Shown here in pieces: positions 11,781 to 17,701 of a stretch of 64,000 nucleotides of DNA. Within the stretch, counting starts at the first letter, position 1; every line of letters begins with the position of its first letter. The notes under the pieces were generated by a model, which was given only the letters and a program-made list of their open reading frames with translations, was not told where the DNA came from and did no database searches. The DNA is from Escherichia phage KIT03. Location of the stretch: the sequence record AP018932. One strand, written 5' to 3'. The translations under genes were made by a program, and so were the position numbers.

Positions 11781-12383
11781 TTATAGATTAAATCCTTCAA
11801 AATCAAGAGTATAGATAGTGTATGTTGAATACTTTTTATACTCATATCTATCTGCAATTCTAAATACACTTCCAGCTGGTATCATTACTTCTTGTTCATC
11901 TGAAACTAATTCCATATTACGATAACGATGGCTATCCGGAAACTTAAAGTTTGGATTGTATTCTTTACAGCGTAGAGCTTTTATAGCATACTCCTGGAAA
12001 TTGAATACCATAGGAGCTTTGAATTCAAAAATAACCTGTGTGTTATACTCTAAACCGGAAGCAAAATGTAAAGCTATATTTTTATCATATGAAGCTGATA
12101 CGACTTTATCAAATGTAATAATATCAATTCCTTGATTTAACACCTGCTTAGTCTCAGCTGGAACACCTCTCCAAAGAGGTTTATCGTTTGGAACCAAACG
12201 AGATTTGATTATTTCATTTAACCAAGTATGGTCATCTGGCTTATTAGTAATACAATGAATTAAAAGTTCAATTTCAGATAAATTAAACCCTTCAGAAAGT
12301 AATTCTTCACGAATAGAAGCACGCACCGATGCATCCATTGATTTTATTTTAAAATCTTTTAGTTGCATTACTGAGTATTTCAT
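11781..12383 (-). CDS. modA: ADP-ribosyltransferase ModA
   Basis: 200 aa equals recalled T4 ModA length; tandem with 207-aa paralog. Confidence 0.7.
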   Translation of the reverse strand: MKYSVMQLKDFKIKSMDASVRASIREELLSEGFNLSEIELLIHCITNKPDDHTWLNEIIKSRLVPNDKPLWRGVPAETKQVLNQGIDIITFDKVVSASYDKNIALHFASGLEYNTQVIFEFKAPMVFNFQEYAIKALRCKEYNPNFKFPDSHRYRNMELVSDEQEVMIPAGSVFRIADRYEYKKYSTYTIYTLDFEGFNL

Positions 12384-13003
12384 TCAACTACCTCAATATC
12401 ATAAACTTTAAATGTTCCAAATGAATCGTGTAATTTTTCTTTTGAAATAGAAGTTATTTTATACTTTCCAATTGGAATCATCCATTCTTGTTCATGCACA
12501 GTCATCATTAAGTTATCAGTACGCTCTGAATCTAACCCATCAGTATCTTCATATGTATACTTAAACTCAGTATTAGGAGAAGAAAGTATAATATCGCTGA
12601 TATGGTCAGAGTAATTAAAAGCTTTATCAGTTTTTAAGCGAAGTATTGTTTCAGTGAAATATTCAGCATAAGAAAAAGAACACGCTGTATGCAAACTAGT
12701 AGTAAATGAATCTACCCTGTTCGTTGAAAACACTTCTCCAACTTGTAAATCTTTAATGAGTTCTTTTGTCGATTTTGATATACCACGATATAACTGATAA
12801 GGCGATTTAGTTAAATGCTTTTTAATGATTTTATTCAACTGTCTGTGAAGAGCTTCATTCTTTTTGGCTTCCATACATTGCCAAAGAATTGATTGTTCAA
12901 AATCAGTAAACTTTTCACAAACCTTTTTATACATATCATATTGAAAATCAACGCTTTCAGCTTTTATAGATAACTGTTCAACATCTGCAAGATTAATAAT
13001 CAT
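12380..13003 (-). CDS. modB: ADP-ribosyltransferase ModB
   Basis: 207 aa equals recalled T4 ModB length; paralogous to modA. Confidence 0.7.
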   Translation of the reverse strand: MIINLADVEQLSIKAESVDFQYDMYKKVCEKFTDFEQSILWQCMEAKKNEALHRQLNKIIKKHLTKSPYQLYRGISKSTKELIKDLQVGEVFSTNRVDSFTTSLHTACSFSYAEYFTETILRLKTDKAFNYSDHISDIILSSPNTEFKYTYEDTDGLDSERTDNLMMTVHEQEWMIPIGKYKITSISKEKLHDSFGTFKVYDIEVVE

Positions 13004-13019
13004 GATAGCCTCCGTATAC

Positions 13020-13049
13020 TTCAGAAGCTATCATATCATTGTTAGAAAG
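13020..13049 (-). promoter_or_regulatory. T4 early-type promoter
   Basis: GTTTAC-n18-TATGAT with TG extension. Confidence 0.5.
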
Positions 13050-13070
13050 GAAAGTAAACAACTTTTTGAA

Positions 13071-13253
13071 TTATTTTGCCCAGGGAGCCCAGGGCGGAGG
13101 GTCAAGATGGTATGAAGCTAGTTCTTCTAGAAGAGCATCTGGGGCTTCAATTCCATAATTCTGTAATACTATACGGTACTCTTTCTTATAATCACTAGAA
13201 TCATTCTGGATATTCGTAGAATGATTATCTTCTAACATCTCAAATAAATCCAT
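13071..13253 (-). CDS. hypothetical protein, 60 aa, Pro/Trp-rich C-terminus
   Basis: ORF; short GC-rich 3' end cccagggagcccagggcgg. Confidence 0.4.
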   Translation of the reverse strand: MDLFEMLEDNHSTNIQNDSSDYKKEYRIVLQNYGIEAPDALLEELASYHLDPPPWAPWAK

Positions 13254-13261
13254 ATTAATTC

Positions 13262-13732
13262 CTAGCGGTAAAAACCAAAATAACGGTTAGTTTCAATAAT
13301 CTTTCTTTCTTCTTCGGACATTCTCCAGCGTAGTCCAACATCAAAATGAGCCCAGACCATCTTAACAAATGCATTTATATCTTTAATATCTTCAATAATG
13401 AATGTTTTACTTTTAGAAGGTTGACTCGCTAATTTAACTTTATCGTCTTCAAACAGGTCAAAAAGACCATATTCATGAGCTCTTTTATAGCCTTTAATAG
13501 TTAAAGCTTCAGAAGAAGAAAATGGTGAATCAGTATTCTGCAAAATATCTTCAGTATGCTTTATAATTAGAATAACATTTTCTGGATATTTTCTTTCTTT
13601 TATATCTTTAATTAAAATATCCGGATTTTCTGCTAAAGGAATAATTAATGAGCACTCTTTATCAAGTGTATTTACCGATTTACCTTCTTTAGACATAAAT
13701 TCTATTGAATAATGTTTTGCTACTTCAATCAT
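13262..13732 (-). CDS. hypothetical protein, 156 aa
   Basis: ORF. Confidence 0.5.
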
Positions 13733-13890
13733 GTGATTTCCTCTTGCCTACTAATGGGCCGTCAGGAATTTTGTTTTCCTGGATATATTTCTCATTTTCT
13801 TCCATCATTTTACTGCCAATTTTAAGAAGCAAATCCAATGCTTCATTTGCTTTAGCCTTGGCCTCTTCTAACGTCATATCTCTGTTCATG
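13726..13890 (-). CDS. small hypothetical protein, 54 aa
   Basis: hand-translated [37 protein letters not shown]...; fills gap between flanking ORFs. Confidence 0.4.
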
Positions 13891-14089
13891 ATTTATCCCC
13901 ATAGATGTCTCTCATCAATTTAAGCGCTGAGCGTTCTAATTTCTTTTCTTTCTCAACGCTAATCATTGATTTCATCCATTCTTCTGATTCGTTCTGCATT
14001 TCTTTATTTGCCTGTTCAACCCAACCATCATCAATGTACATTGAGTTTGGTCTATTGAACCATTCAAACATTTTCTTCAGAACTTTCAT
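13886..14089 (-). CDS. hypothetical protein, 67 aa
   Basis: ORF. Confidence 0.45.
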
Positions 14090-14561
14090 TTGTTTTACCT
14101 AAAACAACAGTAGGAGCATCATCAAATTCATGAATTTTTAGCAAATTTGGATGTAAACTATTCCATACAGAAGAAATAAAGTATGATAAAGCATCTTCAC
14201 TCACAATTATAAATTTATTTCCTTTATCTATTTTCCAGCTATATACTGAATCATACGAATAGAAAGATAGAGGATTATCATTATATTGTTCTGCGCTAAC
14301 ATTAATGTATTCGGATTTAGTAAATGCTTCAATTGCTCTAAACGGAATATTTGGTACAGTTTCAATAATTCCGATCTTTTTAAGTTTTATTTCAGCATCT
14401 TCTGGAACTGGCATTGAAACGAAATTTTCTACGAGATACATTGGGTCACAATAACCCTTATCAATCATTACTGCTACTGTAATTGGAACATCTTTAGCAA
14501 ACGACATGCTATTACTGCTAATATACATTTCAAACAAAATCGCTTCCATAATTTTCCTCAA
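14064..14561 (-). CDS. hypothetical protein, 165 aa
   Basis: ORF. Confidence 0.5.
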
Positions 14562-14899
14562 TCACAAGATGTAGATGAACAACTAGAATCACAAGAACTT
14601 TCACATGAATCACCCGTCCACACATGAACAGGAACATTAGTATCATATGAATCAGAACTAGACTGTGTATTCTGCGTATTAGATGATGTAGTAGGTGTTG
14701 ACCAGCGCCAAGGATTTTTATAATATTCCTGGGCTTCTTCATAAGTCATAGTAACTGCTTCTACTGTTCCATCTCCCATATAAACATATTCAACTACAGT
14801 TAAAGGGAGGTAGTCATTTGAAATAGGAACTACACCTTCTCCGGGAGTTGTAGAGAAAAAATCCGTAAAGAAACTTTTAAACCAATTAAAGATAAACAT
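14558..14899 (-). CDS. hypothetical protein, 113 aa, Cys/Ser-rich C-terminal tail
   Basis: C-terminus [19 protein letters not shown]. Confidence 0.5.
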
Positions 14900-15105
14900 T
14901 ACAAAAAGCCTCTCTTGAATTCGACTTGCTTCTCGCCATAATCATATCGAATCTCTGCATTAAATTCGACAGAACCATCTGCGTACATCATAAATGAATG
15001 CACAACAACTTCTGTAGACCATGGCTGCAGTTCATATTTCTTCATTACATGCCGTGAAATGATAATATCTAAATCTTCATTTGGTTTAATCCAGCGATTT
15101 AACAT
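14899..15105 (-). CDS. hypothetical protein, 68 aa
   Basis: ORF. Confidence 0.45.
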   Translation of the reverse strand: MLNRWIKPNEDLDIIISRHVMKKYELQPWSTEVVVHSFMMYADGSVEFNAEIRYDYGEKQVEFKRGFL

Positions 15106-15174
15106 AGTGCTCTCCTCTATAAGATAATTCTATTATACCATACTCATTTTGATATGTAAACTGCAAAAACGAAA

Positions 15175-15197
15175 AAAGGAACCCCGAAGGATTCCTT
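15175..15197 (-). terminator. hairpin with UUCG loop directly after soc stop
   Basis: plus aaggaa-ccccgaagga-ttcctt. Confidence 0.5.
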
Positions 15198-15202
15198 AAA
15201 TT

Positions 15203-15460
15203 TTAACCACCAATACCTGGAGTTGGCGTAACAGTCCAAAGACCTTCATTAGCAGTGATCCATTCAGTACGCTGATTTTCTTCATATACTGTAGAATATG
15301 CTGCTTTTTCAGAAGGGAATGTCTGATAATGAGCACCAGAAATTTTGTGAACATCAGAATAAAGAGGGAAAGCTACAGAAATTTCTTTACCCTGAATTGT
15401 ACCACCATCAACTGCTTGGTCAAATGTTTTGATATTAACATAACCGCGAGTACTAGCCAT
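15203..15460 (-). CDS. soc: small outer capsid protein Soc
   Basis: 85-aa ORF beginning MASTRGYVNIKTF with FPLYSDVHKISGAHYQTFPSEKAAYSTVYEENQRTEWI, matching recalled T4 Soc. Confidence 0.9.
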   Translation of the reverse strand: MASTRGYVNIKTFDQAVDGGTIQGKEISVAFPLYSDVHKISGAHYQTFPSEKAAYSTVYEENQRTEWITANEGLWTVTPTPGIGG

Positions 15461-15476
15461 GTAATTCTCCTTTTAT

Positions 15477-15686
15477 TTAAATTACATGATTATTTATAAT
15501 AAATTCTCGCGGAACGTTAAAATATCCGATTTTAGTTAATATAACAACATCACCATTAATAATTACCGGAGAATAATCTTCTGAAGCATTAAATTTCCAA
15601 TGGGCTCTAATATTATATCCATCAGAACCAAATGCTCGACTAGCCGTTCTCCCGGCTTTTTGCCATGCATAAAAATCAAATTTCAT
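15477..15686 (-). CDS. hypothetical protein, 69 aa
   Basis: ORF. Confidence 0.45.
   Translation of the reverse strand: MKFDFYAWQKAGRTASRAFGSDGYNIRAHWKFNASEDYSPVIINGDVVILTKIGYFNVPREFIINNHVI
15491..15498 (-). promoter_or_regulatory. late promoter TATAAATA for soc
   Basis: exact TATAAATA on minus strand about 30 nt upstream of soc ATG, followed by AAGGAGA RBS. Confidence 0.6.
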
Positions 15687-15886
15687 TTTGAATGCTCTAT
15701 AATTAATTTTAAGGCTTCTTCACGCACCAACTTGTCTAATGGTATATGCCCAGTTTTAATTGTGTAAGCTTTGTGGAGCTGATTAGATAAGAGCTCGTAT
15801 GTGAGCTCTTTGTCATAATCTTTAAATAGCTGGTCAATACGTTTCTTGCGGGCTTTCTTAAGCTGGCGTTTATTTAAACGAGCCAT
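15683..15886 (-). CDS. hypothetical protein, 67 aa
   Basis: ORF. Confidence 0.45.
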   Translation of the reverse strand: MARLNKRQLKKARKKRIDQLFKDYDKELTYELLSNQLHKAYTIKTGHIPLDKLVREEALKLIIEHSK

Positions 15887-16404
15887 TAATAGCCTCTGTC
15901 TTGACGAGCGAAGTTTTCAGCATTTTTCAGATAATAAAGTTTAAATATTTCTTCAGCTGACATTCCAAGAGCAATAAATTTATTCATGAAAAAGTGAAAT
16001 TGGTCAATCAGTTCAAATTTAATTTCAAGCTGATCTTCAGGAGATAAGTCTTGAATTTTCTTGGATTGCATTTCAGAATAACGTTTCTTCCAAGGTTTCC
16101 ATACAGCAGAAGCTTCTTTTTCACCATTACTCATACCACCAAGAGAAGTATATAGCTCGCGAGTTTCGTCTGCGATATAATCGTCTTGGTTTCGCAGCCA
16201 AGCAAGAACTTCTCCTGCAGTTTCAAGTGAATCAGGATGACGATTTGTTTCTGGTTTATCATTAGCCAAACGAATCTGTAAATGCCGCTGCATGTCAAGC
16301 ATAACCTGCAATGGGTCAATACTGTGCATAATATACTCAGCATATGCACGATTTGCTTTATCAACACCTTCGATCAAATGAGCACATTCGTTAAAGTAAG
16401 CCAT
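15886..16404 (-). CDS. 56: dCTPase/dUTPase gp56 (MazG-like)
   Basis: start set to ATG at 16402-16404 (172 aa, close to recalled T4 gp56 171 aa); ORF-track N-terminal extension is antisense of a plus-strand ORF. Confidence 0.75.
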   Translation of the reverse strand: MAYFNECAHLIEGVDKANRAYAEYIMHSIDPLQVMLDMQRHLQIRLANDKPETNRHPDSLETAGEVLAWLRNQDDYIADETRELYTSLGGMSNGEKEASAVWKPWKKRYSEMQSKKIQDLSPEDQLEIKFELIDQFHFFMNKFIALGMSAEEIFKLYYLKNAENFARQDRGY

Positions 16405-16438
16405 TATTTTTCCTTTCAATTCATGGGTTAGTAGATTA

Positions 16439-16462
16439 ATTATACAATAAATATATAAAGCA
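16439..16462 (-). promoter_or_regulatory. middle (MotA-type) promoter for gene 56
   Basis: minus strand TGCTTTA - 11 nt - TATAAT. Confidence 0.5.
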
Positions 16463-16475
16463 ATAAGGAGGACAT

Positions 16476-16676
16476 ATGGTACAAAAATTAATGGCACTTG
16501 TTAATGCCATAAAAGGTAATAAAAAACGTATAGCTTTTACTATTTCTGCTATGGTAGGAATTTTACTCTGGAACTTTATTTTATCACCAATTGCAATTGC
16601 ACATGGTGTTAATATTCCAGTAGTTACTCTTGATACATTCGTAGATCTAGCATTTGCTTTAGTTGGGTTAATTTAA
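16476..16676 (+). CDS. small hydrophobic protein, 66 aa, on the opposite strand
   Basis: AAGGAGG 4 nt before ATG; two hydrophobic segments; sits in the otherwise non-coding 56-61 interval. Confidence 0.4.
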   Translation: MVQKLMALVNAIKGNKKRIAFTISAMVGILLWNFILSPIAIAHGVNIPVVTLDTFVDLAFALVGLI

Positions 16677-17701
16677 ATCTTAGCATATTTAGATAGCCGC
16701 ATTTTAGCCATCAACCCCTGGGCAATATTATTTTTCATATATTCCATAATTTGTTCAGGGGTTGCACCTTCCTTTCTAATCATATCATTGACATCTTTTG
16801 ATTTCCAGGGAGATTTATCCCAAAACATAACCCTTTCTCCTGCATCAACTAATTTAGTCATTCGCTTGATAGTGTCAGGGTGACGAGGTTCATTATCTAA
16901 AACCCACACTCGTCTATCTTTAAATGGAACAACTTCTAGGTCTAATTGACCGCCAGTAATGGCTATACCATTTTCAATAAAAAGTGAATCGATAGGTCCT
17001 TCTAGAACATATACATCACCATCTTTAACTCGTTCAACACCGTAAATTTTTGTTGCCTCAGGATAAGCTTTAATGGTGATATATTTTTGAGGAGCATCTT
17101 TCTTTAATGCACGTCCTTGAAAAGACTCAGCTTTTCCATTAGCATTATAAATTGGAATAACAAGACGAGGCTCAGGAATTTCCTTTTTGTATGTTCCTGG
17201 TGCTATGCTATTAACTAATTTAGGCCATTCGGTTGTAAACCAAAGATATTTCCATTTATCCTTTGGAATACAACGAGCTTTTACGTATTTTATAATTGGA
17301 TGGTCTTCCGCCAGTTTATCTAATCTAACACATGACGGAAGAGATTTAATTATTTTCTTCTCAGGTTGTTTAGGAAGTTCTTTAGGTTTTTCTACTGGAC
17401 GACTTTTACCTTTTTCTTTTCTTATTTCAAAGATATACTCACGATATAAATCGGGTTCAAACTCCTTTAAATATATTCCGATTGGTGCATGATAGTTACA
17501 GTTATAACAATGAATATTTCCTTCATTATTATCACCATAATACCATCCACGAGCTTTATTTTGGTCGGTTTTTGAATCTCCACAAACAGGGCATCTAAAC
17601 CGCAATTTAAAAGTTGAACTATTATTTACTTGTGTGAATTTAGGTAAATGAGCTAATGCACGGTATGCAAACTCATTATCAATCCAAGGTATTGATGACA
17701 T
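16673..17701 (-). CDS. 61: DNA primase gp61
   Basis: 342 aa equals recalled T4 gp61 length; N-terminal zinc ribbon CPVCGDS...CYNC. Confidence 0.9.
   Translation of the reverse strand: MSSIPWIDNEFAYRALAHLPKFTQVNNSSTFKLRFRCPVCGDSKTDQNKARGWYYGDNNEGNIHCYNCNYHAPIGIYLKEFEPDLYREYIFEIRKEKGKSRPVEKPKELPKQPEKKIIKSLPSCVRLDKLAEDHPIIKYVKARCIPKDKWKYLWFTTEWPKLVNSIAPGTYKKEIPEPRLVIPIYNANGKAESFQGRALKKDAPQKYITIKAYPEATKIYGVERVKDGDVYVLEGPIDSLFIENGIAITGGQLDLEVVPFKDRRVWVLDNEPRHPDTIKRMTKLVDAGERVMFWDKSPWKSKDVNDMIRKEGATPEQIMEYMKNNIAQGLMAKMRLSKYAKI

Follow-up and report, generated by a model that had tools for sequence, protein, structure and literature searches.

The T4-like phage protein Mrh.1 ends in an acidic, serine-rich tail with cysteines that, judged from its homologs, is more conserved than any other part of the protein and is the signature of its whole family rather than a peculiarity of T4. 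We analyzed a stretch of 64,000 nucleotides from Escherichia phage KIT03 (AP018932), hereafter the window, in which mrh.1 occupies positions 14558..14899 on the minus strand and, according to the open reading frame (ORF) list, encodes 113 amino acids (aa) from an ATG start to a TGA stop. The tail spans residues 95-113 (14561..14617, minus strand), contains four cysteines, is predicted to be disordered and carries the family signature S-C-D ... S-C-D-COOH. A functional constraint upon it at the protein level is near certain from the comparison of homologous sequences. Furthermore, this analysis newly shows that the C-terminal half with the tail forms a portable module, carried in unrelated phages by transmembrane (TM) helices, zinc-knuckle-like CxxC motifs or amphipathic helices.

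To describe conservation across the family, we used 116 sequences, comprising 115 full-length homologs and the window protein; the underlying family profile search gave 129 DUF7206 matches, 120 of them listed, and among the matches listed all carried PF23836 and the named ones belonged to T4-like phages of Enterobacterales. The protein terminated in -CD in 112 of the 116 sequences, in -CN in two and in -CE in two. Exactly two cysteines were present within the last 32 residues of 110 sequences, the last two cysteines lay 4-12 residues apart with modes at 6 and 8, and an aspartate directly followed the upstream cysteine in 100 cases, usually as SCD. The last 20 residues were composed of 46% S, 17% D, 14% G, 10% C and 8% Y, and the cysteine frequency outside the tail was 0.07%. 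The sole invariant or near-invariant alignment columns were the N-terminal K/F/P positions, the E-Y-x-Y-M-G-D-G-x-x-E-x-V block and, within the tail, C103/C107, S105, S111, C112 and D113. The four-cysteine form of the tail was specific to the T4 subgroup, which has gained two additional cysteines; two of the four are kept across the family.

At the codon level, the tails of two diverged relatives (L007 and L011) differed by 11 synonymous changes and a single replacement. These comparisons show strong purifying selection, acting on the amino acids, on the internal cysteine (usually within S-C-D) and on the penultimate cysteine with the terminal aspartate (S-C-D-COOH). In distant relatives, the gene ended in TAA and in some of them mrh did not lie downstream, with the tail still conserved; since neither the TGA stop nor the following mrh is constant, the C-terminus is not dictated by the ribosome-binding site of mrh. 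A preliminary description of this DNA, made from the sequence alone, had considered that the stop might be incorrect and had proposed comparing tail length among related phages. The first idea was rejected, as the tail was present in all 115 full-length homologs and the Pfam model extends over it to the last position. The comparison drew on 15 members listed for a cluster of 515, on 6 viral contigs and on representatives of other clusters, and gave the same length from DSC to SCD in every Tequatrovirus sequence sampled; substitutions in the Tequatrovirus tail were rare (G/E at 100, S/G at 106, T/A at 95), and insertions and deletions among close relatives fell upstream, in the variable linker, and not in the tail.

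Within the window, the composition of the tail is far from chance. The cysteines of Mrh.1 are at residues 99, 103, 107 and 112 (C-x3-C-x3-C-x4-C-D-COOH), with none elsewhere in the protein. Among 17,207 windows of 17 residues drawn from all ORFs of at least 80 aa, at least four cysteines were found in two places only, namely the Mrh.1 tail and one unvetted, mechanically called ORF. The binomial probability was approximately 1e-4 for the four cysteines in 17 residues and approximately 6e-6 for the eight serines. The preliminary description was thus right about a 113-aa ORF with a cysteine- and serine-rich end, for which the ORF list gives the same tail, the ATG start and the minus strand. Its "SC(D/E)SS repeat" held in part: a low-complexity tract rich in S, C and D is present, but the peptide is irregular, the repeat is only approximate and the DNA is not repeated. 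Its suggestion of a slippage-prone tract, which would amount to a coding microsatellite, failed on both counts, because Tandem Repeats Finder detected no DNA repeat array, and hence no tandem short-unit repeat, between 14400 and 15000 even at score 30, the serine codons are mixed (TCA, TCT and AGT, representing both TCN and AGY), and no length polymorphism exists among the close relatives sampled. Its other suggestion, that of metal binding, may hold and is taken up below.

The assignment of the gene itself is near certain on sequence grounds: the window is a T4-like (Tequatrovirus) genome and the ORF is the ortholog of the T4 early gene mrh.1. Against Pfam DUF7206 (PF23836), the ORF scored 101.9 bits (cut-off 25.6, E = 3.7e-29), with residues 3-113 aligned to positions 1-107 of the 107-position profile, tail included. 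This full-length hidden Markov model (HMM) match above the curated cut-off was accompanied by all three family motifs, that is, the N-terminal W-L-K-x-L-F helix, E-Y-V-Y-M-G-D-G and the C-terminal S-C-D...S-C-D-COOH. Mrh.1 also matched phrog_2031 (E = 5.9e-33), and tblastn retrieved 500 T-even-type (Tequatrovirus-type) records, several of them labelled mrh.1. The KIT03 protein YP_010071503.1 is the exact Mrh.1 sequence of the window, and positions 13000-16500 share approximately 96% identity with phages such as Shigella phage Shfl2 and PP01. T4 Mrh.1 likewise has 113 aa and lies between mrh.2 and mrh, and its annotation (14685..15026; PMC11879866 supplement) gives 342 nucleotides (nt), the length found here. 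The T4 record was 100% identical over residues 1-94, the sole part aligned through the low-complexity filter, and the Tequatrovirus homologs sampled were 88-99% identical, with the cluster representative RB68/RB51 at 96%. The four-cysteine tail was the same in the Tequatrovirus homologs read. Residue 100, in the tail, is Glu in the window (and in KIT03), where almost every other sampled Tequatrovirus sequence has Gly. For the window itself, this is an ordinary result, a correctly called and already catalogued T-even gene.

Searches beyond the family returned little. A literature search, which did not include the Miller 2003 review of the T4 genome, found no paper discussing the Mrh.1 protein or DUF7206/PF23836. 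The family profile matched nothing in the PDB sequences at E up to 10, NCBIfam contained no relative of Mrh.1, and a single-protein HMMER search of the whole sequence library recovered family members only, plus a repetitive false positive (P0012). Similarly, a fold search of BFVD with the low-confidence Mrh.1 model retrieved family members only.

The tail nevertheless recurs on proteins with other N-termini. A tail profile of 42 aa gave two non-significant matches, one of which led to gp041 of Salmonella phage 7-11 (YP_004782416.1; L022 1501..1740), a Moazamivirus protein of 79 aa with an unrelated N-terminal CxxC...C knuckle. The C-terminal 18 residues of gp041, SDSYSSCDSSSSFSGSCD, are identical to those of the Mrh.1 homolog of the T4-like Edwardsiella phage PEi20 (L013 1516..1929), and the N-termini of the two proteins are unrelated. 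Pattern scans of viral contigs at the DNA level were codon-restricted (TCN serines and a fixed stop), so that the catalog of tail-bearing proteins is a lower bound; they recovered T4-like genes plus proteins from L025, L031, L038, L100 and L117. The protein of L025, an uncultured 82-kb contig, has 116 aa and an N-terminal CxxC knuckle. In L031, which is the same as a prophage of Methylovulum miyakonense (L077), the protein of 105 aa begins with a TM helix followed by RDRKTEK, and the 130-aa protein of L038, a 249-kb jumbo contig, combines an N-terminal TM helix with a five-cysteine tail. The uncultured L100 encodes 57 aa with no recognized N-terminal anchor or knuckle. L117 is Erwinia phage Hena1 (NC_048828.1 96688..97089), whose 156-aa protein contains the N-terminal, Mrh.1-like amphipathic helix MLKWLAKILGLVKEEK and a tail ending in SWGGDSGSSSSSSCDSGGGGGSCD.

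In these six proteins, counting gp041, the DUF7206 match was confined to the C-terminal half (approximately positions 40-107 of the profile, E from 7e-6 to approximately 1); the Hena1 protein passed the family cut-off on its C-terminal 52 residues. The 7-11 and Hena1 proteins share with Mrh.1 a charged segment, a serine-rich linker, an aromatic patch and the S-C-D...S-C-D-COOH tail, whereas they belong to unrelated phage lineages and genomic contexts and their N-termini lack PGEGVVPI and EYVYMGDG. Where an N-terminal TM helix is followed by positive charges, as in L031 (L077) and L038, the topology would place the tail in the cytoplasm. The metagenomic protein P0140, itself a non-significant match (E = 4.7), displays the same layout of TM helix plus tail. 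Across 185,579 genomes of bacteria and archaea, scanned with a restrictive pattern that makes the result a lower bound, no cellular protein other than that of the prophage had the tail, and tblastn of the L025, L031 and L038 proteins against cultured phages gave no match. As a separate observation, by-eye reading around the tail genes of L038 (7037..7921, minus strand) and L031 (2974..3579, plus strand) placed one of them approximately 600 nt from an ORF resembling SPFH/band-7 (HflK/C-like) proteins and the other approximately 1 kb from a J-domain protein.

We modelled Mrh.1 with AlphaFold2 from a 63-sequence alignment (mean predicted local distance difference test score, pLDDT, 57). The prediction describes a largely disordered, modular protein consisting of an amphipathic helix, a core of hairpin plus helix, a variable linker and the acidic serine-rich tail. 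The N-terminal amphipathic, aromatic helix is predicted at modest confidence for residues 3-15 (14855..14893, minus strand) with the conserved family motif phi-x-[WF]-[LIF]-K-x-[LFM]-F. Its hydrophobic moment ranged from 0.41 to 0.79 across the family, compared with 0.27-0.56 for reference membrane-targeting helices of the MinD/FtsA/MreB type; we infer that the helix is a putative membrane- or partner-binding element. The small folded core at residues 34-61 (14717..14800, minus strand; pLDDT 73-84) is predicted to comprise strands 34-40 and 46-52 (pLDDT 75-84) and, at moderate confidence, a helix at 53-61, and its beta-hairpin carries the near-invariant E-Y-V-Y-M-G-D-G-x-x-E, with Y40, G42, D43 and G44 as invariant columns. 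A disordered linker rich in Ser, Thr, Asn and Gln follows at residues 67-94 (14618..14701, minus strand) and is the site of the insertions and deletions among close relatives. For residues 69-113, including the tail, no structure was predicted (pLDDT 40-49).

From sequence, model and analogy, we tentatively propose, as a possible mechanism, that Mrh.1 is a membrane-proximal, flexible arm of thiolates and carboxylates that binds metal. The N-terminal helix, whose position is taken by a TM helix in L031 and L038, would tether Mrh.1 to the inner membrane on its cytoplasmic side, leaving the flexible tail as the working end. Tail thiolates and adjacent carboxylates, that is, the Cys-Asp pairs and the free C-terminal carboxylate, might then chelate a soft or borderline metal ion, held either between tails or already bound within a site of a host protein, for example a membrane zinc protease; in the latter case, Mrh.1 would modulate a host factor in early takeover. 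The invariant thiols beside carboxylates and the disordered, acidic tail speak for metal binding, and the cytoplasm is reducing, so that free thiols are favored. Short flexible stretches of thiols and carboxylates, such as metallothioneins, phytochelatins and the C-x7-C loop of CueR, can in principle bind soft metals, and digonal metal sites made of two cysteines tolerate flexible loops. Unlike metallothioneins or CueR-type loops, however, Mrh.1 has two conserved cysteines only, has no Cys-x-Cys or CxxC clusters and shares no sequence similarity with them. Lambda CIII offers a further comparison, being of the type of small early phage inhibitors that act on the membrane protease FtsH and place an amphipathic helix at the inner membrane; FtsH has sigma-32 among its substrates, and it is to sigma-32 that the T4 neighbors srh and mrh relate. 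CIII nonetheless has no sequence similarity to Mrh.1 and no cysteine tail, and the FtsH link serves as context only.

Several points weigh against the metal-binding arm. With two conserved cysteines spaced 4-12 residues apart and no histidine, a classical tetrahedral site is impossible in a monomer. The terminal N in two clusters implies that a side-chain carboxylate is not absolutely required, and AlphaFold predicts no defined structure for the tail. Moreover, no known metal-binding family matched Mrh.1 in the Pfam, PDB profile and NCBIfam searches, and the protein does not conform to the metallothionein type, given that only two of its four cysteines recur in homologs beyond the T4 subgroup and that it has no CxC or CxxC. 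The proposed membrane location draws on hydrophobic moments and on analogy with the TM-anchored relatives; two tail-bearing lineages carry CxxC knuckles in place of membrane anchors, and L100 has no recognizable anchor or knuckle. The fitness effect of mrh.1 is, in addition, marginal.

A broader version of this proposal, which we regard as rather unlikely, is that the tail with its charged or serine-rich linker constitutes a portable effector module that, on varied anchors (amphipathic helix, TM helix or zinc knuckle), targets a single conserved factor of the host at its cytoplasmic membrane through thiolate-metal chemistry. Such a module could, for example, plug the zinc site of a protease of the FtsH/HtpX/RseP type or sequester a metal needed by host defence. 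If true, it would represent an undescribed class of host-takeover or anti-defence modules common to T4-like, 7-11-like and Hena1-like phages and some prophages.

Among the alternatives to a metal-binding arm, a short linear docking motif comes foremost, although we consider it somewhat unlikely: the C-terminal S-C-D-COOH and the acidic serines would insert into a host or phage protein without metal, as a decoy or inhibitor. A mostly disordered architecture with few short conserved motifs between variable linkers, a highly conserved last residue as in C-terminal peptide ligands, and the portability of the module across phage lineages all fit such a role. The genomic neighborhood fits as well, since srh and mrh are neighbors and the early T4 proteins of this block, Srh, Mrh and Srd, are thought to modulate host transcription or stress factors. 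Docking would leave unexplained, however, why two cysteines are invariant in otherwise cysteine-free proteins; moreover, the codon-restricted scan revealed no similar tail on a host protein that Mrh.1 might mimic. Scored with a matrix of the Mrh.1 N-terminus, E. coli RpoH matches best at its RpoH box, RKLFFNLRKTKQ; at only 5.2 bits (P of approximately 0.05), we rejected this similarity as evidence. A sigma-32 connection is suggested only by the neighbors srh and mrh and by this weak resemblance, which do not count as evidence for it.

Alternatively, the two conserved cysteines could form a reversible disulfide, making the tail a redox-active swinging arm or a redox sensor, functionally comparable to the C-terminal cysteine pair of class Ia ribonucleotide reductase R1. 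The number of tail cysteines, exactly two in most of the family (2-4 in Mrh.1 relatives and up to five in L038), agrees with this, as does the predicted disorder; two cysteines at variable spacing in a flexible tail suit a loop-closing disulfide better than a fixed chelate geometry. We nevertheless find a redox arm improbable, because the likely location is the reducing cytoplasm, the protein contains no redox domain and none is encoded as a conserved neighbor in the loci examined, and acidic neighbors should raise the thiol pKa and lower reactivity.

It is more unlikely still that Mrh.1 is a precursor modified after translation, whether as a ribosomally synthesized and post-translationally modified peptide (RiPP) with a leader and a Cys/Ser-rich core or through acylation, phosphopantetheinylation or phosphorylation of its serines or cysteines. 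A conserved N-terminal part followed by a Cys/Ser/Asp-rich "core" does resemble thiazole/oxazole or lanthipeptide precursors, and in class IIb microcins and RiPPs, small proteins of enterobacteria, a C-terminal region rich in Ser or Cys is the functional part. The tail protein P0140 weakly matched the YxzE-like "putative bacteriocin" family, at 13 bits against a cut-off of 40; being far below that cut-off and involving a non-significant hit only, this link was rejected as evidence. In contrast to microcins and RiPP cores, Mrh.1 ends in a conserved Cys-Asp rather than Ser, and an export signal is absent from these proteins. Genes of the maturase type (YcaO, LanB/C/M or radical SAM) were not found beside the gene in at least six unrelated genomic contexts, where the neighbors were small hypotheticals, Soc, Mrh-like proteins and Mod ADP-ribosyltransferases in T4-like phages and a ligase plus hypotheticals in phage 7-11. 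Conservation of a free Asp at the C-terminus and the existence of versions with a TM anchor likewise suit a tethered protein over a released peptide.

Finally, the tail is extremely unlikely to be a by-product of a slippage repeat, of folding of the RNA or of overlap with the ribosome-binding site of mrh, with no role at the protein level: the TGA stop does overlap the Shine-Dalgarno sequence of mrh (GAGGAA, as read in the sequence) and TCTTGTGAT is present twice in the tail coding sequence, but there is no tandem repeat, RNA folding at the mrh.1/mrh junction gave an energy no better than shuffled sequences (z = 0.14), Rfam returned one chance-level hit only on 13000-16500, the tail keeps a fixed length in close relatives and its amino acids through many synonymous changes, and it persists with a TAA stop, without mrh as the next gene and in unrelated phages.

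With respect to its genomic context, mrh.1 is an early gene that is transcribed together with mrh.2, to which it is probably also coupled in translation, and it lies upstream of mrh. On the minus strand, mrh.2 (14899..15105; 68 aa; phrog_1873, E = 1.2e-36) precedes mrh.1; the coupling is suggested by the sequence TAATG, in which the mrh.2 stop and the mrh.1 start overlap. In 14 of 15 related loci with a resolved upstream small ORF, that ORF overlapped the mrh.1 start by 1-11 nt, and most of these ORFs were Mrh.2 homologs. Upstream of mrh.2-mrh.1-mrh, a consensus scan located a strong sigma-70-type early promoter at 15132..15160 (minus strand; TTTACA-17-TATAAT with TG, 11/12 matches). The T4 early promoter Pe15.0 is named in PMC6024815, and by map position only the window promoter may correspond to it. 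A terminator scan found a terminator-like hairpin after soc at 15176..15197 (minus strand; 9-bp stem plus T run), which sets soc apart from the mrh.2 operon. Downstream, mrh (14064..14549, minus strand) encodes 161 aa from an ATG at 14549 and matches Pfam T4_MRH (E = 9.9e-43). The spacing of 8 nt between mrh.1 and mrh is the same as in the T4 annotation (mrh 14191..14676, mrh.1 14685..15026; PMC11879866 supplement).

The remaining genes of this region, all on the minus strand, are modB (12380..13003), srh (13886..14089), soc (15203..15460), gene 56 (15886..16497) and gene 61 (16673..17701). The order 56 - soc - mrh.2 - mrh.1 - mrh or Mrh-like - Mod ADP-ribosyltransferases was found in the window, in T4 and in the PEi20-, JS98-, RB69- and Enterobacter-phage-group loci examined. 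The Srh-like proteins encoded by srh and at L007 1840..2034 (the latter with MRITSWLKDWLVTPG) both carry at their start a motif similar to the N-terminus of Mrh.1. Two small ORFs (69 and 67 aa) occupy 15477..15886, where the T4 map (PMC11879866 supplement) has segF, and a 176-nt spacer without a dam gene separates genes 56 and 61 (16498..16672); the T4 order is soc, segF, 56, dam, 61.

Published screens give mrh.1 only a marginal effect on fitness. In a dCas13d knock-down, T4 mrh.1 was "Semi-Fit" (score 0.79, p = 0.069; PMC11879866 supplement) and belonged, genome-wide, to a group of five semi-fit genes whose function is purely unknown; mrh.2 and mrh were "Not Fit" in the same screen. Insertion mapping classified T4 mrh.1 as non-essential, with 31/31 sites hit (bioRxiv 10.1101/2025.11.20.689424 supplement). 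The gene is one of many in T4 without known function; given that its tail is constrained, serves as a family signature and recurs on other anchors in unrelated phages, that function becomes experimentally approachable, and work directed at the tail would inform on an entire group of phage proteins together.

Natural variants of the gene were also encountered. P0005 (141 aa, from a 175-kb NCBI contig), P0004 (73 aa) and P0009 (53 aa) are frameshifted or truncated mrh.1 alleles without the tail. They represent natural knock-outs or else errors of sequencing, and they fit a dispensable gene; P0005 continues in an alternative frame that corresponds to the window ORF at 14530..14742 (minus strand). 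P0003 (164 aa; cluster of Escherichia phage 235Ecol030PP, with Yersinia phage fPS-90 as its BFVD hit) is a mosaic variant of Mrh.1 in which a T4-type N-terminal half is followed by an inserted JS98/Dhaka-type middle (..MEEIIRQPEKAGNVG..LNSKKLKEHLD..AVSSW) and a four-cysteine T4 tail, which suggests recombination between Mrh.1 subtypes. P0007 (150 aa, from a 647-nt ENA contig) joins a mammalian-repeat-like ORF (..RMRWLDGITDSMD..REAWRAA..) to the first 30 Mrh.1 residues and is probably an assembly artefact. Lastly, an open frame on a Candidatus Binatia chromosome (OY761159.2; L082 1622..1660) ends in a perfect (SCD)x7, a true coding microsatellite that is unlike the phage tails and probably unrelated to them.

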